A stretch of DNA of 30,413 nucleotides from Myxococcota bacterium (GTDB lineage: Bacteria > Myxococcota > JACRCW01). Made by a program: the position numbers and the translations under genes. Shown here piece by piece: positions 7,557-18,235 of the stretch. The stretch is taken from NCBI GenBank assembly GCA_040752415.1, contig JBFMGU010000126.1, forward strand, positions 1 through 30,413. The letters are read 5' to 3'. The notes under the pieces were generated by a model that was not told the origin of the DNA, ran no database searches, and worked only from the letters and a program-made list of their open reading frames with translations. Position 1 is the first letter of the stretch, and each line of letters opens with the position of its first letter.

Positions 7557-8036
7557 TCACTTCCTGACGGCGATCTTGAGCGGTTGCGTGCCGGCCTTGC
7601 GCGGGACGAACACGCTCAGCACACCGTCCTTCAGCTCGGCCACCGTCTTGCTGGTCTCCGCGCCCTCGGGCAGTTGGAAGGTGCGGGAGAACGAGCCGTA
7701 GGTGCGCTCGTAGGTGTACCAGGTGTCGTGTTTGTCCTGCTGCTCCGCTTCGCGCTTGCCGCTGATGGTGAGGCGGTTGTCCGTGATGGTGACGTCGACG
7801 TCATTCTCCTTGACGCCCGGCATGTCACCCTTGAACACAAAACCCTCCTTGTTCTCCTTCACCTCGAACGCCGGGACGAAGCTGGCGTAGCGGTCCATGT
7901 AGCGCTGCAGCGCGGCCGGGCTGCCACGGAAAGGATCCCAGCTCATGAGGTCGCGCATCATGCGGAACGGGTCCCATTCCGAGGCTGGTGGAACAGAAGG
8001 CGCGTTGGACTCCTTGCGCACGGAAAGATTGGCCAC
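7557..8036 (-). CDS. Small heat shock protein, Hsp20/alpha-crystallin family
   Basis: WDPFR repeats in the N-terminus, DMPGVK..DVDV, LTISGKRE, ERTYGSFSRTFQLP, AELKDGVLSV and a C-terminal IAV motif; AAGGAG RBS. Confidence 0.95.
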   Translation of the reverse strand: MANLSVRKESNAPSVPPASEWDPFRMMRDLMSWDPFRGSPAALQRYMDRYASFVPAFEVKENKEGFVFKGDMPGVKENDVDVTITDNRLTISGKREAEQQDKHDTWYTYERTYGSFSRTFQLPEGAETSKTVAELKDGVLSVFVPRKAGTQPLKIAVRK

Positions 8037-8186: not shown

Positions 8187-9377
8187 TCAGTGTCCGGAGG
8201 ACTGGAAGATGAAGGGATAGCTCACCACCACCACGCCTCCTCCTCGTGGCGGCGGGAACATCATGCGTTGCACCACGCGCAGCACGCAGGTCTCCACCAC
8301 GTCGTCATCCAGGGCACTCTCCTGGACCTCGGCCTGGGACACCCTTCCGGTGCCGGCGATGGTGAAGCCGATGTGAACCTTGCCCGCGAGGTTGGGGTTG
8401 CGGTTCAGCTCCTTCTCGTAACAGTGCTTCACCAGTGACAGGTAGCGACGGATCACCTGGCCCACCTCGTCCTTGGAGAGCCCTCCGTCGACGACCGAAC
8501 GCCGGTTGTCCACCTCCACCCGGCGCTTGGCGCGCGTGTCCGAGAGACTCACGTCCGTGCCGTTGCGCACTCCGTCGGGAGAGCCGATGACGCCGATGTT
8601 CTGCACGTTCCCACCCCCGCCGCTGCCGATGGAACGCGTGCCCAGTCCTTCACTGCCCCGTGCATCCGCGAGCGCGCCCCGACCAAGCACTCCCGCCGCG
8701 GTGTGCAGCTCATTGCCGATTCCCGGAGAGCCCAGCACCGCGGCGACGGCGCCATTCTGACGGAGCGCCATCAGCAGCGGAGAGCGTTGCACCGCTTCCC
8801 GGTCCGCGCGTCGTGAGCCCGTGGAGAGACGGGCCGGGTTGCGTGGTGCGTCACGTCGTCCCAGCGTGCCTTGTTTGCCGCTGGCCTGCTGGCCTTGTCG
8901 CACGTGCCGGGGAGTGGGGGGCTTGCGGATGGGTGGCTCGCGGATGGTGCTGGTGATGCGGCGCGCGGTCTGGAGCGCGGTGTCGTCGAGCGCAGGCAGG
9001 TGCGGTGTGAGGTGCAACGCAAAGCCCAGCATGGCGCTGGTGGCCAGCGTGGCGGTGAGCACCTGCGCGAAGAGCACGTCCAGCGTGGGAGTGGAGGACA
9101 CCACCTGCGGGACGTCGTCGACGAAGCGCAGGCGATGCGTCAGTCCGTCGACCTCGAGGTGCAGCGTCTCATCCGGGCGGAGCACCACGGGCTCGTGTGT
9201 TGAACGCGGCTGGTTGTTGCAGCGGATCCTGGCGCACGGCGGTGCGTTCACGACGACGTGGTCCGCGCCCCACTCCACACGAAGGTCCGACCAGGGAAGC
9301 GCTTGCGAGTGGTGCAGGTGACGCAGGTCGATGAGTGTGTCGGCCCACCACGTGGTGAGCTCAAGGGTGGATGGCAT
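8187..9377 (-). CDS. AgmX/PglI C-terminal (TonB-C-like) domain membrane protein, GltG-like paralog
   Basis: Central TM segment and Gly-rich linker. The C-terminus GGLSKDEVGQVIRR..VKHCYEKEL..NPNLAGKV..FTI..G.V..CV..M.FP.PRGGG.V.VSYPF.F is typical of this family. Confidence 0.85.
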   Translation of the reverse strand: MPSTLELTTWWADTLIDLRHLHHSQALPWSDLRVEWGADHVVVNAPPCARIRCNNQPRSTHEPVVLRPDETLHLEVDGLTHRLRFVDDVPQVVSSTPTLDVLFAQVLTATLATSAMLGFALHLTPHLPALDDTALQTARRITSTIREPPIRKPPTPRHVRQGQQASGKQGTLGRRDAPRNPARLSTGSRRADREAVQRSPLLMALRQNGAVAAVLGSPGIGNELHTAAGVLGRGALADARGSEGLGTRSIGSGGGGNVQNIGVIGSPDGVRNGTDVSLSDTRAKRRVEVDNRRSVVDGGLSKDEVGQVIRRYLSLVKHCYEKELNRNPNLAGKVHIGFTIAGTGRVSQAEVQESALDDDVVETCVLRVVQRMMFPPPRGGGVVVVSYPFIFQSSGH

Positions 9378-9503
9378 GGCGGTGCCTCTTCCAGGCGAAC
9401 GTGCGCCCGGCGGTGATGTCAGTCTGGGGGTGTGCGGGAAGAGACAGCGGGGTCCGCAAAAGGTTCCTTGCGGAGCAATTGCGGCGCGTACTACCCGGGA
9501 TGC

Positions 9504-10256
9504 ATGGGATCCGTGGTGCGGCTGCTCGTCGCTGCGGGGTTGCTGGGTGCGGTGGCGTGCCCGGCCTCCGTCCACGTCTCCGCTGGAGAAGCCGAGCCGC
9601 TGGCGGTGGACATCCCGGATGCCAAGGCGCCGTTGCCTGATGCCGGCCTGCGCGACGCCGCACTTCGCGACGCCACGGTCATTCCTCCGGATGCCGGACG
9701 AGACGCTGGTGAGGGTGTTGATGCGTCCTCTCCGCGTGATGCTTCCGTTGCCCCCGACGCCACCCGTCCCGACGCTGCCGTGCGGGTCGACGCGGGCATC
9801 CCGCTCGCGCGATGGACGGCGGATCCCACGCCCGACGTCGCGGGATATCTCTCGCTGCGCGCGGTCGCCGTGACGACGGAGCGCGTGACCTTCGCGGTGG
9901 ATGTCACCACGCCCATCCCGGTCTTTGGCGCGGCGGTGCGGCTGGAGCACGCGTCGACGGTTCTGCGAATGGTGGATGTGACGTCGTGTGGCGGGCTGGA
10001 TGGGGCAGGACCGGCACCGCGCACGTGGCGGGAGGTGGGGCCGGGCCAGGTGTGGGTGGGGATTGCGTCGGCTTCAAGGCAGAGCCTGCTCAACGCCACG
10101 CAGGGCGCGTGCCTCCTGCTGGTCACCTACGACGTGGTCGCCCCGGGAACCACGCGCGTGGACCTGGTCCCGTCACGCAGCGCGGCGGTGGGACCAGCGG
10201 CCAACACGTATGCCACCAGTGCCGTGGCCGGTGGGTTGCTCGAGGTGACGCCATGA
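9504..10256 (+). CDS. Lipoprotein with an Asp/Ala/Pro-rich (DAG/PDA) linker and a C-terminal cohesin-like domain
   Basis: Lipobox GAVA-C, then repeated PDAG/DA linker units. The beta-rich domain (VTFAVDV..VFGAAVRLEH..VLRMVDV..GQVWVG..LLLVTYDVVAPGTTRVDL) follows the cohesin strand pattern. Its stop overlaps the next start (ATGA at 10253-10256). Confidence 0.7.
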   Translation: MGSVVRLLVAAGLLGAVACPASVHVSAGEAEPLAVDIPDAKAPLPDAGLRDAALRDATVIPPDAGRDAGEGVDASSPRDASVAPDATRPDAAVRVDAGIPLARWTADPTPDVAGYLSLRAVAVTTERVTFAVDVTTPIPVFGAAVRLEHASTVLRMVDVTSCGGLDGAGPAPRTWREVGPGQVWVGIASASRQSLLNATQGACLLLVTYDVVAPGTTRVDLVPSRSAAVGPAANTYATSAVAGGLLEVTP

Positions 10257-12121
10257 AGCGGTGGTTGTCGCTTCTCCTCGCGCTCCTGGCGCCGCAGGGG
10301 GCGTGGGCTGCCACGGAGCTGCAACGTCACTTCGACGCGCTGTGGCTGGAAGCGGCATCCCGCGCTCCCACGACGACGGTGCACCCGTTGGGCATCCCGC
10401 GTACCCCGTCCGGTGACTATGACCTCCACCGCGTCGACGTGGATATGACCATCCATCCCGACGACGGAACGCTGGACGCCACAACGACACTGACGTTGGC
10501 GGCACAGGCGACCACGCTGACGCGACTGACCATGTACCAGGTGGGACTCCAGCTCTTGTCCGTCTCCGACGAGCAGGGCGCGCTCACCTGGCAGCTGGAC
10601 CCCAACACCGCGGAGCTGGTCATTGCGCTGCGAACCGCGTTGGCGCCGCAACAGAGCGTGACGTTGACGCTGGTCTACACCGGCACGCCGTGGTGCAACG
10701 GGGACTGCAACATTGGCGAGATCACGTACCTGCCGCTGTACCACCTGATGCCGTATGACCCGGACCTGTTCACGGGCGCGTGGGACGACCGTTACCTCGC
10801 CGGGTACCGCGTGGTGGTGCCCGCGACGCATGGCGTGCTGGCTTCTGGTGAGCTGGTCTCCCAGGAGCTCCGCGACGACGGCACCGCCGCGCACACCTTC
10901 GAGCAGGCCCACCCCGGTTTGTTCTTTGGCATCACCGCCGCGCCCTACAACATCACCGGAGGGAGCATGCCGGTGGCCTTGCGCGTGGCCGCACTGCCTG
11001 GTCACGACGTGCAAGCCCCGGTGTTCATGCAGATCCTCGGCGACGCGCTGCAGACCTACTCCACGCACTACGGCGCTTTGCGCTTCAGTCACGTGGGCAT
11101 GGCGGAGATTCCCTACAGCAGCGTGGCGCAGGCGTATGGATTGGAGGCGCTCATCTGGTACGCGGAGCCGCACCTCGTCGACGCGGCCGCGCCATTCGGC
11201 TCCCTCACGCTGGCGCACGAGGCCGGTCACCAGTGGTGGGCGAACATGGTGGCGGTGGCGGAAGCAGAGGCGCCGTGGCTCTCGGAGGGATTCGCGGAGT
11301 TCTCCGCCATGCTCTACACGGAGGAAACCCTGGAGCCGGTGACCTACACCTCCGACGAGAAACGCGCGCTGCGTGCCCTGCACGGGGACTACTACGTCTA
11401 CCGCGACCTCTTCGGCGTGCAGGACGTTCCCCTGACCAGCGCGGACATCCGTCTCGCCGACTCCACGACGTCGTTCATAGTGACCTACATGAAGGGTGCC
11501 ATGGTGGTGGAGGCGTTGCGCGACCTCCTGGGAGACCAGACCTTCAACACGACCATGCAGCGCTACGTCTCGCTCCACGGCGAGGACGGGGTCACGACGT
11601 CGATCTTGCAGGCGGTGGCGGAGGCGGAATCGGGCCTCCCACTGGATGATTTCTTCGCCGCGTGGGTGTTCGGCACCGGTTCCCCGCGTTACACCGTGCG
11701 CACCCTGCTCGCCGACGCTGGAGCCTACGTGACGTTGTCCCTGGATGACCCCACCTTCGTGAACCAGCCCGTGCTGGTGCGCGCCGCGGGACCCGGGGTG
11801 GCCTGCGCGGACGTCCTCGTCACCGTGCCGTCCAGCGGAACGCAGGTGGAGCTGTTGTGCACCGGTGCTCCCGCGCGCGTCGACGTGGACCCGGAGTACC
11901 GGTTTCCCCGTCGGGTCCGCTCCGAGCAGCCCGGCGACCTGGACGGCTCCGGTGACGTCGACGGCTTTGACTTCGTGGCGGCGGTCCACGCGCGCGACGC
12001 AAGCTTCCATCTCAATTCCTCCCACTGGAACCCGGAAGCGGACCTGGATGAGGACGGTCAGATCACCCAGGCGGACCTCGACGTCATCGAGGCAACTTTC
12101 GGCCAATCCCTGACGCCGTAG
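10253..12121 (+). CDS. Secreted M1-family zinc aminopeptidase with a C-terminal dockerin domain
   Basis: Signal peptide MKRWLSLLLALLAPQGAWA; HEAGH-x18-E (LAHEAGHQWW..WLSEGFAEF); catalytic Tyr region TYMKGAMV; two Ca-loop repeats GDLDGSGDVDGFD and ADLDEDGQITQAD at the C-terminus. Confidence 0.9.
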   Translation: MKRWLSLLLALLAPQGAWAATELQRHFDALWLEAASRAPTTTVHPLGIPRTPSGDYDLHRVDVDMTIHPDDGTLDATTTLTLAAQATTLTRLTMYQVGLQLLSVSDEQGALTWQLDPNTAELVIALRTALAPQQSVTLTLVYTGTPWCNGDCNIGEITYLPLYHLMPYDPDLFTGAWDDRYLAGYRVVVPATHGVLASGELVSQELRDDGTAAHTFEQAHPGLFFGITAAPYNITGGSMPVALRVAALPGHDVQAPVFMQILGDALQTYSTHYGALRFSHVGMAEIPYSSVAQAYGLEALIWYAEPHLVDAAAPFGSLTLAHEAGHQWWANMVAVAEAEAPWLSEGFAEFSAMLYTEETLEPVTYTSDEKRALRALHGDYYVYRDLFGVQDVPLTSADIRLADSTTSFIVTYMKGAMVVEALRDLLGDQTFNTTMQRYVSLHGEDGVTTSILQAVAEAESGLPLDDFFAAWVFGTGSPRYTVRTLLADAGAYVTLSLDDPTFVNQPVLVRAAGPGVACADVLVTVPSSGTQVELLCTGAPARVDVDPEYRFPRRVRSEQPGDLDGSGDVDGFDFVAAVHARDASFHLNSSHWNPEADLDEDGQITQADLDVIEATFGQSLTP

Positions 12122-12129
12122 GTGCTCAC

Positions 12130-12912
12130 GTGTGTCTTCTCATTGTGCTTCACAAGGTCCACCCGGAAGCCCCGTTGCTCATTGCCGCCAACCGCGACGA
12201 GCTCCTGGCGCGACCCGCCGTGGCCATGACCGTGCTGCAACAGAAGGGTCCACGCATCCTGGGTGGTCGCGACGAGGTGGCGGGAGGAACGTGGCTGGCC
12301 ACCAACGAGCACGGCGTGGTGGCGGGGTTGACGAATCTCCCGTCGGTGAACGGCCGCGACCCGTCGCGACGCTCGCGCGGTGAGCTGCCGCTGGCGTTGG
12401 CACAACACGAGACGGCGGCGCGTGCGGTGGAGGTGTTTGCACGGGAGCATCGGCCGCGCGACTACAACCCGTGCTGGATTCTCGTCGGCGACGCCACGTC
12501 GCTGTTCTACGTGGACATGACCAACGGTGACACGCCGCAGGTGCGCGAGCTGGCATCCGGAATCCACGTGCTGGAGAACCGCCCGCTGGAGGTGGATTCC
12601 CCCAAGGTGGAGCAGGTGCAGGCGCTGCTTGGCGGTGTGATGCCGCGTCGTGGCGACGAGCTGGTGAGCGCGCTCACCGCGGTGGTTGCCAGTCACATCA
12701 TCCCGGAGCGCATCCTGCGTGAGCCGCACCCGGTGTATCCGTCGGAGGCGGCGGCGCCGTGCGTGCACGCGGGAATGTATGGCACGCGGTCCTCGTCGGT
12801 GATCCGGGTGTTGCCGGGAGCGAAGCCCCGCTTGTGGTCCGCGGACGGAACGCCCTGCACCGCACCCATGCGCGAGGTGAGCGCGTTGTGGTCCGGTGAC
12901 GACGTGGCGTGA
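12130..12912 (+). CDS. NRDE family (TANGO2-like, Ntn-fold) protein
   Basis: N-terminal MC, IAANRDE, GGRD..GGTWL, SRGEL and YGTRSS motifs. Confidence 0.9.
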   Translation: MCLLIVLHKVHPEAPLLIAANRDELLARPAVAMTVLQQKGPRILGGRDEVAGGTWLATNEHGVVAGLTNLPSVNGRDPSRRSRGELPLALAQHETAARAVEVFAREHRPRDYNPCWILVGDATSLFYVDMTNGDTPQVRELASGIHVLENRPLEVDSPKVEQVQALLGGVMPRRGDELVSALTAVVASHIIPERILREPHPVYPSEAAAPCVHAGMYGTRSSSVIRVLPGAKPRLWSADGTPCTAPMREVSALWSGDDVA

Positions 12913-12928
12913 GGAAGGTCGGTACGGT

Positions 12929-15900
12929 TCAATCCGGGCGGATGAGCAGGGTGTAGCTTCCCGCCGCCACGGAGTCGTCCGCGCCCATCACCTGGAAGTG
13001 CACGCCGTAGACGGGCGGGATGTCGATGATCACCGCGGAACACGCGTTCCCAAGCGGGAGCCCGCCGCCGAGGGGGAAGCCGTCCGGGCTGTAAAGGTTG
13101 AGCCGGAGGTCGGGACTGTCGCAGGGGACCGCCCGTCCCGAGGCGCCGTAGAGCTCGGCGCGGACGCGCAGCGCGGTGTCCTCGGCGGGGTTGGCAACGT
13201 AGAAGAAGTCCTCGTCGCCGGCGGGCGTGATGGCGCCGCTGATGAACACCACGCTCGGGACCGGTTGCGCTGCCGCGGGGAAGTCGTCGCCGAACTCTCC
13301 GCCCGCCGTCGACGGGGCGCCGTCGTCGTTGGGCTCCGGCTCCGGGATGGCCTCGGGGAAGCAGGTGTCGTCGCAGCCGTCGCCATTGCTGGTGTTCGTG
13401 TCGTCGCAGAGTTCGTCACCCTCCACGCGGCCGTTACCGCACACCGGGTGCGCGCAGACGTACGCGGAAAGATCATCCAGGAGGCACAGGCCGTCGGCGC
13501 AGCGCGTGTCGACCTCGTCGGGATCACAAGGTTCACCCAGCGCCATCACGAAGCGCTCCCGGATGGTGATCTCGAAGTCCCCGGGCACGGGCTCGGTGCC
13601 ATAGGGCCCGAACGGCTCCACGCCGATGTACACGGTGGAGCCGCCGGCGAAGTTGTTGGCGTTGGCCCGGGCCACGCCGTTGTCGGCGAAGCCACAGCCC
13701 TGCACGCCCTGGGTGCAGTCGCCGAAGATCTGGATGGTGTGCGGGTCACCGGCGACCTCCACAAACACGTCGCGGAAGTCACTGGCGGTGCCTGACACCG
13801 TGTAGCGGAAGAAGGTTTCCGGGAGGGTGACCGACACCGCGCACGCGTTGTCCAGCTGGTCTCCCGCTCCGACGGTGGTGCCCACGGTGGGCACGCCGGT
13901 TTCAAGCAGCGCGCCGGCGTTGCAGGTGGTGACGGGATCAGGACGGTTGGTGCAGACGTGGCCACCGCCGCCGTCGGGCGCGCACACCTGCGAGGGCTGG
14001 CACCGGTTGTCCAGGCCCGCGGGGTCGCACGGTTGATCCGCGTCCAGGACCTCGCGCTCGTACAGCACCAGCTCATAGGGCCCAGGAGCCACGTTCGTGC
14101 CGTCGAGCGGGTTGTAGCCACCTGCGACCAGCACCGAAAGCGACGTGCCCGCGCCCACGTTGGCCAGCAACAGGCCGCGCTCGGTGTCCGTTTCCGTGGT
14201 CACGCCGCACGCCTGCTCGAAGAATGCGGAGGTGCAGAACGCAGCGTCCCGGATGGAAAGGGCCATGTTGCCGCCGGTGAGACGCACCACCACGTCGGAA
14301 AGCGTGGCGCTGGTGGTGTACCGGTAGAACGCCTGCGCAACACCACGCTCGTAACAGGCCATGACCGTCACGGCGCCGTCGGTCAGCGTGGATTGCACCA
14401 GGTCGCCATGCACCAGCGGGGTGGCGTCGGCGCAAGCGTTCTGCGCGGCGGTCCCCGCGTCCTGACAGGTGTGCCCGCCCTGTCCGTCGGGAGCGCACGC
14501 GTGGGGAATGCCGCTGTCGTCGTCGCAGCGGTTCTGCAGGCGGAAGGGATCGCACGCGCTGCCCGGCGGCAGCACCGGACGCTCCGTGATGCGCACGTTC
14601 AAGGGGCCGCCAATGGGAGCTCCCTGGTCGTCGACGCCGCCGCCGATCACGACGGCAAGCGGTTGTTGCGCCTGGACATTGTAGAGCATCAGCGCGTGCT
14701 GCGTGGCGTTGTCCGGGATCGCTTCGCAAGCCGCTTCGGCATAGTCGTACTGGCAGTCGTAGCGCACACCCACGAGAGTGCGCGCCGGTCCTTCCACCTC
14801 CACGACGACATCCGCGACGTTGGCACCGGTGAGATAGCCGTAGATCACGTTGGAGGATGGCTCGCCGCACGCCATGCCAGTGATCGGTGGCGCGTTGTCC
14901 AGCGAGCCCGCCATCCACTCGCCCGAGGTCAGCGACGGCGCCGCTTCGCACGCTGCCTGCAACGCCGCGTCCGGTGGGGTGCAGGTGTAGCCGGCCTGAT
15001 CGCTCCCGAGGCATTCCAGGCCCAGGTCGGGGTCACACAGGCGCATCGGGTCGGCGGGGTCGCAAGGCTCGTCCTGGTTGAGGATCACCAGCTCCTCGAC
15101 GGTGAGCGTGAAGGGACCCGCGAATTGCGGCGCCGAGGGAGCCACGGCCAGGAACAGGTTGGTGCCCGGCTCGTACCGGTTGCCCACCTGGGTCCCCAGC
15201 GTGGTCCAATTGCCGCACGTGTCGTCGGCAGGAGACGGGGCGCAGGCGCGGCGCAGGTCCAGGAAGTGCGGCTCGCCCTGCGTCAAGCTGATGGTGACGT
15301 AGGAGGCGTGCGTGGCGTCGGTGGTGAAGGAGAAGGTGGATTCCGGCAACACCGTGTCCTCGGCAAGGCAGAGGCTGCGGGTGACGTTGGTGGCCGTGGT
15401 GGAGTCTCCCTGGACCTCGCCCACCTGCAACGGCGTGGCAGCGGTGCACGCGGCAAGCTCCGCGGCGGCCTGGTCCTGGCAGGTTCCTTCCTGGCACACC
15501 TGGCCCAACGTGCAGGCATCCCGAATCCCACGCGGGTCGCACGTTGCGCCGGCGTCACGAACGGGGAACGGGTTGACGGGAATGTTCAACGTGGCGCTGC
15601 GCATCCCGGCGGCGTCCACCAGCGTCACGTCCGCGCTGGCCAGATCTCCGAGGTTGAGGATGGCGGTGCCCCCGTAACGGGCCACGGCGTCGTCAAAGGT
15701 CGTCCGGCCGCGGGTACCGGAGTTCATCCGCACGAGGGGCTGGAACTCCTCGAGGCCACCGCCACCGCTGTGGGCCAGGATCAGCAGCGGGGCACCTTGC
15801 GCGTCCCGCGGCAGCACCTCCAGGCTGAACGCGTCACCGTCGGGGTCGGTGCCATCCAGCACACCGCGCAGGCCTTCCACCCAGCCGTCCGCGTCGTCAT

Positions 15901-18235
15901 CCACCACGAACAGTTCCGCCGCGTCGAGCGTGGGAGCGGTGGGCGTCGCGGGCGCGGCGGCGCAGTGGTACCCGCTCTCGTCCACCAGGCACGCGTTCCC
16001 GGGCGGGCAGGCGGTGAGAATCGGGATCGTGTCGCACTCGTTGCCCGTGTCCAGGACGGTGTACTCGCGCACGCGGATGAGGAGGTCCGTGTCACCCTGC
16101 GCATAGGACGACGCCACGATGAAGAGCTGCGTCCCGGCCGCTTGCGGACCCAGGCGGAGGATCTCCGAGTTGATGTTGGCGTCCAGGCAGTGCGTCTCGG
16201 TGTTCGCGTCGGCGCAGGAGGTGCGCACGCTCAGCACCATGTTCCGGTCGCTAAGCAACTGGATGCGCAGGCTCGCCCCGTCCTGTTGCACCGTGTAGCT
16301 GAAGATGACGTCGGGAGCGTTCCCGTCGACGGGGTCGCCGCAGGAAGGCGTGATCACGTCCGCGGAGCCCAGCGTGGTTGCGCTCGTGAAGGTGTTGCCC
16401 AGCGCCAAGGGCGCGGCGCACTGGAGGAGCAACCCGTTGGTGCAGGTACCGCCCAGGCACTGCGTCGCGGGGCTGCACGCGGTGGCGGCGTCGCAGGTCC
16501 CATTCTCCTGCACCACGGTCAGCGTCCCCAGCGTGACACTCAGCGGCTCGCTCTCCCGGCCGGTGCTGTCCAACAACGTCACGTCGGCGCTGACCACCGC
16601 CTCACGGTTCACCATGCGCCGCCACTCGTCGGTGTCCATGGGGAAGTCGGTCACCGAGGTGAGGCCGGCGGCGGGAAAGGCCCAGCCCGGCGAGGGGTAG
16701 GTGACGACGTCGAACGCGTCGTCATGCGAGCGACGGCCAAGCCGGTAGAGCGTCACCGGGTTGCCGGTGGCGTCCTTGAACACCAGGCGCAATCCGCTCA
16801 TGTCCCCGTCGGGGTCGCTGGCGGTGAGCACCATGCGAAGCAGGTCCGCTTCGCCGTCGCCGTCGGTATCGCCCTGGAGGAGGGCCAGGCCTCCCAGCGT
16901 GGGCGCGGAGCTGTCGGCGCACTGGAGGTTGGTCGCGTCGCAGCGCAGGCCGGTGGCGCAGCGCTGGGCGGGGTTCCCCGGCTCGCAGGAATCCGTGGCC
17001 TCGCCGGGCGTGAGCTCATCCAGGGACAGCGTGAACTCGTCCTCGTAGCCGGGCAGCTCCGCCGAGACGACGATGAACAGCTCCGTCCCCTCGATGACGT
17101 CGGTGACGTAGACCTCCTCCTCGGCCTGGAAGCCCAGGAATCCGCCGCCGTCGAGGTCCGCGCACGCACGCTCCGAGCCGGGATCCGTGCAGCTCCCGCG
17201 GACCATCAAGGTCAGGTCGCTGTTCGACTCGGCCTTGACGTGGACATCCACCGGCGAGGCGGGGCCGTTTCCCTGCACCACGTAGCGGAAGATGCGCTGC
17301 CCACCCGGGTGGGCCGAGGTGCAGGATCCGGTGGTGAGTCGGGAGCGTCCCACGGTGGTGCTGGTGGTGACGGTGGCGGTGATGTCGGCAACGTTGCCGC
17401 ACACCAGGGCCAGGTTCTCGCCGGCGTTCTCACAGCGCCACGTGTTGCTGGCGTTGCTGCACTCCAGCCCGGTGCCGCAGCGGCTGGTGCGGCCCAGGGG
17501 GTCGCATTCCCCGTCGAGCGACACCACGGGACGGGTGCGCGCGTACAACGAGAACGGACCCGCGGCCCCCGGCGAGAACGCGCCCACGAGCACGCGCCGT
17601 CGCGCGCCGGGCGCCACGTCGAGGAGCTCCAGGGTCTCCACGCGGGACTCCGTGTAGCGGTCCGCGCAGGCCAGCTCGTCGCCCGCGTCACAGTCGCTCA
17701 CCATGAGACCCTGGTCGGCGCCTCCGTCGTCCAGGGTGAGGATGAGGTCGACCGGGCCGGTGGCCTGCGAGGTGAACTCGTACGCCACGTCGGGGCCGCT
17801 CCCGCCGCCAAAGGCGGTCTGGCAGCTTCCATCGAGGAGATTCTGCGCGGTGCTGGTGTCGCCGGTGTTGGGCGCGTCGAGCGCGAGGGTCGGGACGGTG
17901 TCGCAGATGCCGGGTGTGCCCGAGGAGCTGGAGGAGCTGCTGGTGCTCGTCCCCGACGACGACGAGACGGCGCTGCTGGGCGCGCCCGAGGATGACGAGG
18001 AGGAGGACGACGACGAGGATGACGAGGAGGAGGACGTGCCGCTCGAGCTGCTGCTGGTTGACTCCCCGGACGACGAGGAGCCACCCGAGCTGGTTCCACC
18101 CGTCGACGCGGCGGCGCTGTCCGAGCTTGAACCGCTGGAGTTGCCACCGGGACCAGGACACGACGGACAGGCTGCCAGGAACGGAAGAATACCCACCACC
18201 ACCGGCGTCAGCGCGCCTCTCAAGCTTCGTCTCAT
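12929..18235 (-). CDS. Giant Cys-rich modular surface lipoprotein (1768 aa)
   Basis: Lipobox FLAA-C; poly-Ser linker; about 7 repeated Cys-containing beta modules; 2 'APTL..DPDGD..SADVTL.D' modules; myxobacterial Cys-rich repeat VCGNGRVEGDELCDD.N..NGDGCD..C; C-terminal EPND..GDEDFF PPC-like domain. Confidence 0.88.
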   Translation of the reverse strand: MRRSLRGALTPVVVGILPFLAACPSCPGPGGNSSGSSSDSAAASTGGTSSGGSSSSGESTSSSSSGTSSSSSSSSSSSSSSSSGAPSSAVSSSSGTSTSSSSSSSGTPGICDTVPTLALDAPNTGDTSTAQNLLDGSCQTAFGGGSGPDVAYEFTSQATGPVDLILTLDDGGADQGLMVSDCDAGDELACADRYTESRVETLELLDVAPGARRRVLVGAFSPGAAGPFSLYARTRPVVSLDGECDPLGRTSRCGTGLECSNASNTWRCENAGENLALVCGNVADITATVTTSTTVGRSRLTTGSCTSAHPGGQRIFRYVVQGNGPASPVDVHVKAESNSDLTLMVRGSCTDPGSERACADLDGGGFLGFQAEEEVYVTDVIEGTELFIVVSAELPGYEDEFTLSLDELTPGEATDSCEPGNPAQRCATGLRCDATNLQCADSSAPTLGGLALLQGDTDGDGEADLLRMVLTASDPDGDMSGLRLVFKDATGNPVTLYRLGRRSHDDAFDVVTYPSPGWAFPAAGLTSVTDFPMDTDEWRRMVNREAVVSADVTLLDSTGRESEPLSVTLGTLTVVQENGTCDAATACSPATQCLGGTCTNGLLLQCAAPLALGNTFTSATTLGSADVITPSCGDPVDGNAPDVIFSYTVQQDGASLRIQLLSDRNMVLSVRTSCADANTETHCLDANINSEILRLGPQAAGTQLFIVASSYAQGDTDLLIRVREYTVLDTGNECDTIPILTACPPGNACLVDESGYHCAAAPATPTAPTLDAAELFVVDDDADGWVEGLRGVLDGTDPDGDAFSLEVLPRDAQGAPLLILAHSGGGGLEEFQPLVRMNSGTRGRTTFDDAVARYGGTAILNLGDLASADVTLVDAAGMRSATLNIPVNPFPVRDAGATCDPRGIRDACTLGQVCQEGTCQDQAAAELAACTAATPLQVGEVQGDSTTATNVTRSLCLAEDTVLPESTFSFTTDATHASYVTISLTQGEPHFLDLRRACAPSPADDTCGNWTTLGTQVGNRYEPGTNLFLAVAPSAPQFAGPFTLTVEELVILNQDEPCDPADPMRLCDPDLGLECLGSDQAGYTCTPPDAALQAACEAAPSLTSGEWMAGSLDNAPPITGMACGEPSSNVIYGYLTGANVADVVVEVEGPARTLVGVRYDCQYDYAEAACEAIPDNATQHALMLYNVQAQQPLAVVIGGGVDDQGAPIGGPLNVRITERPVLPPGSACDPFRLQNRCDDDSGIPHACAPDGQGGHTCQDAGTAAQNACADATPLVHGDLVQSTLTDGAVTVMACYERGVAQAFYRYTTSATLSDVVVRLTGGNMALSIRDAAFCTSAFFEQACGVTTETDTERGLLLANVGAGTSLSVLVAGGYNPLDGTNVAPGPYELVLYEREVLDADQPCDPAGLDNRCQPSQVCAPDGGGGHVCTNRPDPVTTCNAGALLETGVPTVGTTVGAGDQLDNACAVSVTLPETFFRYTVSGTASDFRDVFVEVAGDPHTIQIFGDCTQGVQGCGFADNGVARANANNFAGGSTVYIGVEPFGPYGTEPVPGDFEITIRERFVMALGEPCDPDEVDTRCADGLCLLDDLSAYVCAHPVCGNGRVEGDELCDDTNTSNGDGCDDTCFPEAIPEPEPNDDGAPSTAGGEFGDDFPAAAQPVPSVVFISGAITPAGDEDFFYVANPAEDTALRVRAELYGASGRAVPCDSPDLRLNLYSPDGFPLGGGLPLGNACSAVIIDIPPVYGVHFQVMGADDSVAAGSYTLLIRPD
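17920..18145 (-). repeat. Coding low-complexity poly-Ser/Gly linker
   Basis: GAG/GAC/GAT triplet runs on the + strand are Ser codons on the minus strand within the giant lipoprotein. Boundaries are approximate. Confidence 0.75.

Follow-up and report, generated by a model that had tools for sequence, protein, structure and literature searches.

A cohesin lipoprotein and a dockerin-bearing M1-family peptidase encoded by overlapping genes: a probable two-gene docking module in Myxococcota

Cohesin-dockerin docking is textbook knowledge for plant-cell-wall breakdown by Gram-positive anaerobes. Why, then, are the two halves of this binding pair encoded side by side in a member of the Myxococcota (lineage JACRCW01; assembly GCA_040752415.1)? 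The window, i.e. the whole stretch of DNA analyzed, comprises 30,413 nucleotides of contig JBFMGU010000126.1 (positions 1 to 30,413, forward strand) and carries gene A, encoding a putative lipoprotein with a cohesin module, followed by gene B, encoding a secreted M1-family peptidase with a dockerin module. The likely answer, in our judgement, is a dedicated two-gene docking module in which the cohesin lipoprotein tethers the dockerin-bearing M1 peptidase to the membrane in a one-to-one ratio. All sequence features named in a preliminary description of this DNA, which was made from the letters alone, were recovered in genes A and B, and they are more than chance features since homologues, folds and conserved gene pairing were found for them.

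Cohesin and dockerin modules in overlapping genes

The genes and modules on which the argument turns are as follows.

9504-10256, + strand: gene A (P0001), a 250-amino acid (aa) lipoprotein with a single cohesin module (open reading frame and translation)
10253-12121, + strand: gene B (P0002), a secreted zinc peptidase of family M1, 622 aa long, with the dockerin at its C-terminus (open reading frame and translation)
10253-10256, + strand: ATGA stop/start overlap of genes A and B, read in the sequence and suggesting translational coupling
9804-10253, + strand: cohesin module of gene A, residues 101-250 (AlphaFold2 model and structural matches)
11930-12118, + strand: dockerin module of gene B, residues 560-622 (family profile and fold)
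11936-11971, + strand: calcium-type loop 1, D562-D573, with G and F at positions 10/11
12041-12076, + strand: calcium-type loop 2, D597-D608, with Q and A at positions 10/11

The C-terminal domain of gene A is, by its predicted structure, a cohesin fold. AlphaFold2, supplied with a 9-sequence alignment, returned an all-beta model (predicted local distance difference test, pLDDT, 95.7; predicted template modelling score 0.90) with 12 strands across residues 2-150 of the 151-aa stretch 9801-10253, and the nine-stranded jelly-roll beta sandwich of solved cohesins was found in it. A Foldseek search of the PDB with this model yielded 77 matches at E <= 0.001 (best 6kgf_C, E 1.9e-7), all of them cohesins among the matches listed. 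With VIA-align the 48 best solved entries were all cohesins, including 2vo8 of Clostridium perfringens (Z 15.8, root-mean-square deviation 2.3 over 128 residues), and the ESM Atlas search returned cohesin clusters (score 0.93, template modelling (TM) score 0.79-0.81). The preliminary description had placed a cohesin-like beta domain at 9843-10253; the fold held, and the extent was corrected to ~9804-10253, slightly longer than claimed.

At the sequence level the domain joins the cohesin family transitively, because the relative P0031 links it to the Pfam Cohesin model. A HMMER search of the domain against 1.8 billion representative proteins found 9 proteins at E <= 0.001. Three were lipoproteins of 211-218 aa with the same build as gene A (E 2.9e-18 to 5.9e-8) and two were the shorter lipoproteins P0031 (E 5.3e-5) and P0032 (E 5.7e-5); the remainder were P0001 itself and three long repeat proteins matched over short stretches, the latter left unused. 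The lipoprotein relatives obtained in this way were P0026, P0028, P0030, P0031, and P0032. Against the Pfam Cohesin cut-off of 24.1 bits, P0031 (28.1) and P0035 (24.7) passed, P0034 (22.2) and P0032 (14.1) fell below, and P0026, P0028, and P0030 gave no match to the model. Other searches returned little: a word-index search with whole P0001 found only P0001 itself, probably swamped by the low-complexity linker; a single-sequence domain search of the genomes of 61 relatives gave chance-level matches only (best E 9.9e-4); and the cohesin-family profile against PDB sequences had as its best match 5g5d_A, a cohesin, at a non-significant E of 0.28. A search with a 4-sequence cohesin alignment found a single genome locus, which ends just past the cohesin gene, as well as two loci from metagenomes, of which one is truncated within that gene.

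The tail of gene B consists of two tandem repeats of a calcium loop plus helix, joined by WNPEAD (residues 592-597). The ligand positions 1, 3, 5, 9, and 12 are occupied by D,D,S,D,D in loop 1 and by D,D,D,T,D in loop 2, and D562, D570, D573, D597, and D608 are invariant among 13 sequences. A family profile built from 13 tails and searched against all PDB sequences placed dockerins at ranks 1-8, with calmodulins from rank 9; the best match (2y3n_B, E 3.4e-6) was aligned across both repeats. In the predicted structure of the tail (pLDDT 78) each of the two loops leads into a helix, and the Foldseek ranks 1-25 were all dockerin-bearing entries, led again by 2y3n_B (TM score 0.86 by target, root-mean-square deviation 1.8 over 65 columns). 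Pfam Dockerin_1 (PF00404) aligned to P0002 over positions 1-52 of 57 with 13.8 bits and E 0.071 (cut-off 22.9). The module is accepted as a dockerin divergent from the Pfam model. Accordingly, the two calcium-loop repeats and WNPEAD joint of the preliminary description were borne out, the dockerin by family profile and fold, as was its ATGA overlap of both genes at 10253-10256. It had also noted that positions 10/11 differ between the repeats (GF vs QA), read there as a hint of a single binding mode; the difference was observed here and extends to 13 of 13 aligned dockerins.

Pairing and stoichiometry in the Myxococcota

Conservation of the pair was examined in a phylum sample of 401 genomes. 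The cohesin-family profile, for which 7 candidates were scored per genome so that counts are lower bounds, identified at least 12 loci in 8 genomes, and 11 of the 12 had an adjacent partner gene (cohesin-then-peptidase in 8, the reverse order in 3). Outside the window and one further locus (L023), all 10 neighbours matched Peptidase_M1, 9 of them over the cut-off, and a weak Dockerin_1 match was present in 7 of the 10. A reverse search with the dockerin profile gave matches in 76 genomes. The 26 best places (>= 51.9 bits), distributed over 21 genomes and 9 family codes, comprised 12 known peptidases and 14 new loci, and all 14 new loci matched the family peptidase hidden Markov model (HMM). 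With one new locus excluded for its position at a contig start, 13 were assessable: a neighbour matching the cohesin HMM at E <= 4e-8 was found in 9, two more had a cohesin neighbour at E 2.3e-17 and 5.9e-9 after one rebuild of the HMM, and the last two (L058, L066) had an adjacent lipoprotein frame of weak similarity (E 0.11 and 0.004). A significant cohesin-lipoprotein neighbour was therefore present in 22 of 24 assessable M1-dockerin loci; the preliminary description had named co-localisation of the homologues elsewhere as a check, and the pairing came through it. Furthermore, a 4-nucleotide overlap (ATGA or GTGA) was present in 10 of the 11 junctions read.

The host genome itself encodes three cohesins and three dockerins by the family profiles, all in adjacent pairs. 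The dockerin profile detected exactly three modules at E <= 0.01, each on an M1 peptidase. The second pair, on contig C211, consists of the 176-aa lipoprotein P0024 and the 582-aa M1 peptidase P0025 (Dockerin_1 18.1 bits), and a third is present on contig C480; both pairs overlap by 4 nucleotides. Five further Pfam Dockerin_1 matches in this genome are partial, single-loop matches in large proteins. The 3:3 count, with every module paired, indicates a one-to-one system rather than a scaffold, and a scaffoldin serving many enzymes was rejected on this count. The suggestion in the preliminary description that other dockerin enzymes might dock on the same lipoprotein found no support, as there are only three modules, each with its own cohesin. 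A cellulosome, defined by a multi-cohesin scaffoldin together with carbohydrate-active enzymes, was likewise not seen: each protein carries one cohesin and the cargo is M1 throughout.

These counts bear on the reading that adjacency reflects shared regulation only, the cohesin recognising another ligand, such as a glycan or the surface of prey or kin, and the dockerin having a different partner. Folds of the cohesin type that bind other partners do exist, one cohesin lipoprotein lacks a dockerin gene, and some large, unrelated proteins of the phylum carry dockerin-type modules. Nevertheless, with 22 of the 24 assessable loci retaining the pair, in either gene order and over 9 family codes, and with exactly three of each module in the host genome, this reading is highly improbable.

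The history of the modules is consistent with inheritance of the pairs together since an old duplication. A tree of the peptidase bodies, with the dockerin removed, resolved two subfamilies (support 100/99), and two genomes (G000 and G115) contain one peptidase of each. The best cohesin tree, from which no rows were omitted and which includes the orphan cohesin of G006:C37, shows, weakly, the same split as the peptidases; its long branch G115_C1 is unstable. A tree of the dockerins alone was too short and saturated to be used, with end branches up to 10.

Several loci of related but different build were observed during these searches. In the G006 genome (L046:235-3855, contig C70) a cohesin lipoprotein with an extra N-terminal domain precedes a tandem of two M1-dockerin genes, of which the second has a shorter frame (496 aa). 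In a metagenome locus (L029:2702-2884) a 60-codon frame with a signal peptide and a single dockerin-like repeat is ATGA-coupled to the cohesin gene; its repeat aligned to dockerin repeat 2 with an hhalign probability of 65% (E 6e-5), a junction of the same type occurs at L028:5339, and the frame may represent either a remnant or a mini-ligand. In two large families of the phylum (codes f11 and f30), frames of 900-1570 aa with a different architecture end in dockerin-type modules of 25-50 bits, e.g. G246:C1:8041947-8042117 and G171:C1:6373676-6373846. Several ESM Atlas clusters, mostly from Acidobacteriota and Pseudomonadota, join a cohesin module to GspD-type secretins, which hints at cohesins at outer-membrane secretion pores in some double-membraned bacteria.

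Protein build, proposed mechanism and membrane location

How such a pair might work depends on the remaining features of the two proteins, which are listed below.

9504-9560, + strand: signal peptide and lipobox of gene A, a hydrophobic signal ending ...GAVAC19 (Cys19 at 9558-9560)
9561-9803, + strand: flexible Ala/Asp/Pro/Gly-rich linker of gene A, residues 20-100 (composition)
10253-10309, + strand: Sec signal peptide of gene B, residues 1-19, cleavage site AWA/A (sequence; comparable N-termini in relatives)
11135-11149, + strand: YGLEA, residues 295-299, at the place of the M1 GXMEN motif, 22 residues before HEAGH
11216-11287, + strand: zinc site, HEAGH 322-326 plus E345 (HEXXH-X18-E)
11486-11488, + strand: Y412 in TYMKG (TYxKG), predicted catalytic tyrosine, near-invariant in relatives

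By its lipobox the gene A product is predicted to be a bacterial lipoprotein. Cys19 is invariant in 7 of 7 aligned relatives, and a Cys after a hydrophobic stretch was found in 12 of 12 cohesin proteins of the phylum compared; the residue at -3 of the gene A lipobox is Ala, not the usual Leu. In the linker, A, D, P, and G account for 59% of the 81 residues, and neither its length nor its sequence is kept among relatives. The lipobox and flexible linker of the preliminary description therefore stand, with the Cys19 site and the A/D/P/G-rich residues 20-100.

Gene B belongs to the M1 family by score (Pfam Peptidase_M1, PF01433: E 1.9e-16, 60.8 bits vs a cut-off of 27.7), by HEXXH-X18-E, and by the catalytic-type tyrosine. 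H322, E345, and K414 are invariant among 13 aligned relatives, and E323, H326, and Y412 are nearly so; the catalytic role of Y412 is predicted from that of the tyrosine in M1 enzymes. The earlier reading of a secreted HEXXH-x18-E peptidase was confirmed by HEAGH 322-326, E345, and the signal AWA/A. The YGLEA that it took for a replaced GXMEN has the X22 spacing to HEAGH, only the Glu of the motif being retained. M1 signature spacing is given as GXMEN-X22-38-HEXXH in PMC2241622, which also describes partial loss of GXMEN in some M1 subgroups. The position is not conserved across the present family: one subfamily reads GGMGL or GGLGV, without the Glu, and the others vary, with GGMAP, also lacking it, among the relatives. 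The gene B enzyme is probably active; aminopeptidase activity in particular is not assured because GXMEN is altered to YGLEA and relatives lack the Glu. The closest solved structure to the body is 6a8z_A (E 1.7e-11, residues 55-478), a 474-aa two-domain M1 'zinc metalloprotease', so that gene B lacks the helical C-terminal domain of aminopeptidase N. The catalytic body is instead followed by a short beta region and the dockerin.

A relative in the G026 genome (L045:503-2527) reads H-A-T-S-G where HExxH is expected and carries Ser at the position of the Tyr, and is a probable pseudo-peptidase. It retains both dockerin repeats and its cohesin neighbour, so that retention of the pair appears independent of catalysis. 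This bears on whether the cohesin lipoprotein could be a dedicated inhibitor, chaperone or immunity factor that covers or matures the catalytic body, the dockerin tail being a calcium-stabilised end piece. Tight one-to-one pairing and translational coupling are typical of such enzyme pairs too. However, the co-occurring modules correspond precisely to the partners of an established binding pair, the catalytically dead relative still has dockerin and cohesin neighbour, and a lipid anchor with a long linker suits a tether better. Retention in the G026 relative therefore favours docking over an inhibitor or maturation role, which we regard as improbable.

Under the preferred docking model, the gene A product would be lipidated at Cys19 and anchored in a membrane, most likely the outer one, with its one cohesin module held out on an 80-residue flexible linker. 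Gene B would be translated off the same message via the ATGA overlap, an arrangement that would tend to equalise the levels of the two proteins, and its Sec-exported product would be an M1-family zinc peptidase whose two-domain catalytic body is followed by a small beta domain and then by a calcium-binding dockerin. The dockerin would plug into the cohesin and keep the peptidase on the membrane, preventing its diffusion away, with a single cohesin per enzyme and no further set of dockerin-bearing enzymes to draw on. Physical binding, its calcium dependence, the outer-membrane address, and the side of the membrane faced are what we infer here.

Location is where a variant of the docking model has to be weighed. 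The pair may form in the periplasm, bound to the inner membrane or to the periplasmic side of the outer one, and serve envelope or peptide housekeeping with no surface display; this is a variant of the best explanation, differing in location only, and we hold it to be possible if on balance doubtful. Lipoproteins of double-membraned bacteria face the periplasm by default, both proteins carry Sec-type signals alone, the pair has no secretion-system gene next to it in the window, and nothing found indicates crossing of the outer membrane. On the other side, the nearest structural relatives of both modules are extracellular, and myxobacteria export some lipoproteins to the extracellular matrix (PMC3222651). 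According to the same study, Lys at +2 marks inner-membrane lipoproteins of Myxococcus xanthus (8 of 12 of them; PMC3222651). A Lys at +2 was present in 0 of 12 cohesin lipoproteins, which makes the outer membrane the best guess. Periplasmic tethering, surface display as put forward in the preliminary description, and vesicle loading are all possible outcomes.

A broader proposal, unlikely as a whole, is that lipoprotein-cohesin/dockerin pairs constitute a non-covalent outer-membrane loading system in myxobacteria. An outer-membrane lipoprotein would carry a peptidase, or a dead relative serving as a binding protein, and the cargo could then be displayed, loaded into outer-membrane vesicles, or handed to kin through outer-membrane exchange in the course of predation and social growth. 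Such pairs would add a third route of envelope anchoring beside lipidation and MYXO-CTERM, and three mutually specific pairs would sort the cargos.

A number of observations weigh against the docking model. P0001 has no Pfam match at E <= 1 and none in NCBIfam, Cohesin (PF00963) included, and the Pfam Cohesin model has 0 matches at E <= 1 in the whole host genome. No member of the peptidase family reaches the Dockerin_1 cut-off of 22.9 (best relative 22.3 bits), and the Foldseek E-values of the dockerin model are weak (best 0.013, none <= 0.001). The Pfam check proposed with the preliminary description was thus borne out in part: PF00963 is absent from P0001 and PF00404 sub-threshold in gene B, while the relatives P0031 and P0035 pass Cohesin. 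P0001 shares no BLAST-level similarity with its paralogue P0024, the cohesin lipoprotein of G006:C37 stands alone without a dockerin neighbour, and the closest relatives of the P0001 cohesin (P0026 type, L029) are followed by the 60-codon frame and no peptidase. The split of the cohesin tree has poor support (49/0) and appears in 51% of bootstrap trees, the lipoprotein sorting rule is drawn from one distant species, and neighbouring genes alone are weak evidence of contact.

The window (G+C 64-73%) belongs to an 11.0-Mb draft genome in 520 contigs, in which MYXO-CTERM matches over the family cut-off number 28, compared to 0 in 14 control genomes; this tag is said to be universal across Myxococcota (PMC11980579), and the genome is placed in that phylum accordingly. 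Scanning 9000-13100 for promoters and terminators gave 0 and 2 candidate sites, respectively, as many as in shuffled sequences. A TANGO2/NRDE-family gene (E 3e-34; 12130-12912, + strand) begins 9 nucleotides past the peptidase stop; it was considered as a third partner and rejected, being absent beside the pair in the other loci read. Upstream of gene A lie an Hsp20 gene (7557-8036, - strand) and a divergently oriented frame (8187-about 9390, - strand) with a TonB_C-like, sub-threshold C-terminus. Downstream, a frame of 1768 aa (12929-18235, - strand) has a lipoprotein-like N-terminus, a long Ser-rich linker, and approximately nine Cys-rich repeats, its sole Pfam match being a sub-threshold DUF4215 near the C-terminus.

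Comparison with known systems

If the docking model is correct, the plug-and-socket of cohesin and dockerin would exist, pared down to an operon of two genes, in protein-degrading bacteria of aerobic type with a double membrane, from at least 9 family-level groups, and would provide a concrete hypothesis for the retention of digestive enzymes on the myxobacterial envelope. The modules would also represent compact natural protein-protein connectors, probably orthogonal, with three pairs per cell, and two domains this small make a simple test case. A lipoprotein-cohesin plus M1-dockerin operon was not found described in a literature search, outside of which lay a survey that Peer and colleagues published in 2009 on cohesins and dockerins of non-cellulosomal type; that survey may list some of these genes.

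One parallel comes from syntrophic sulfate reducers and anaerobic methanotrophic (ANME) archaea, for which one report describes cohesin/dockerin proteins as putative adhesins for partner contact (PMC10553843). The likeness lies in cohesin and dockerin modules of double-membraned, non-cellulolytic bacteria with a proposed extracellular role; the modules are not described there as a lipoprotein-peptidase gene pair (PMC10553843). Peptidases docked through a dockerin, as proposed for gene B, are known from cellulosomes, where an S8 peptidase and a Ruminococcus flavefaciens cysteine peptidase bound to ScaE have been reported (PMC12484212), and the S8 protease with a double dockerin, 8x39, was among both the sequence and the fold matches of the gene B tail. 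These enzymes belong to other clans (S8, papain-like), to large cellulosomes, and to Firmicutes. The short M1 peptidases 6a8z and 6iff resemble gene B in lacking the large helical C-terminal domain; however, they lack both the tail of beta domain plus dockerin and a partner lipoprotein, and identity is low.

Use outside cellulose breakdown is shared with the glycosidase/toxin complexes of C. perfringens (2vo8, 2jh2, 2ozn) and the cohesin of Archaeoglobus fulgidus (2xdh). These non-cellulosomal cohesins were the best structural matches of the gene A model (Z 15.8 and 15.5), and 2ozn_B was among the matches of the dockerin model. Judging by the entry titles, the C. perfringens modules lie inside large secreted glycosidases and link enzymes to each other; neither a lipoprotein anchor nor a peptidase nor a conserved operon of two genes forms part of these systems.

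In arrangement the module parallels OlpA and OlpC of Clostridium thermocellum (3ul4, 4dh2), in which one cell-bound cohesin captures one enzyme with a type I dockerin; both cohesins were among the structural matches of the gene A model. OlpA and OlpC are held on the Gram-positive wall by SLH domains, and their cargo is a glycoside hydrolase chosen from a pool of many dockerin enzymes. In contrast, genes A and B combine a lipid anchor, a double-membraned cell, an M1 cargo, overlapping genes, and a one-to-one ratio.

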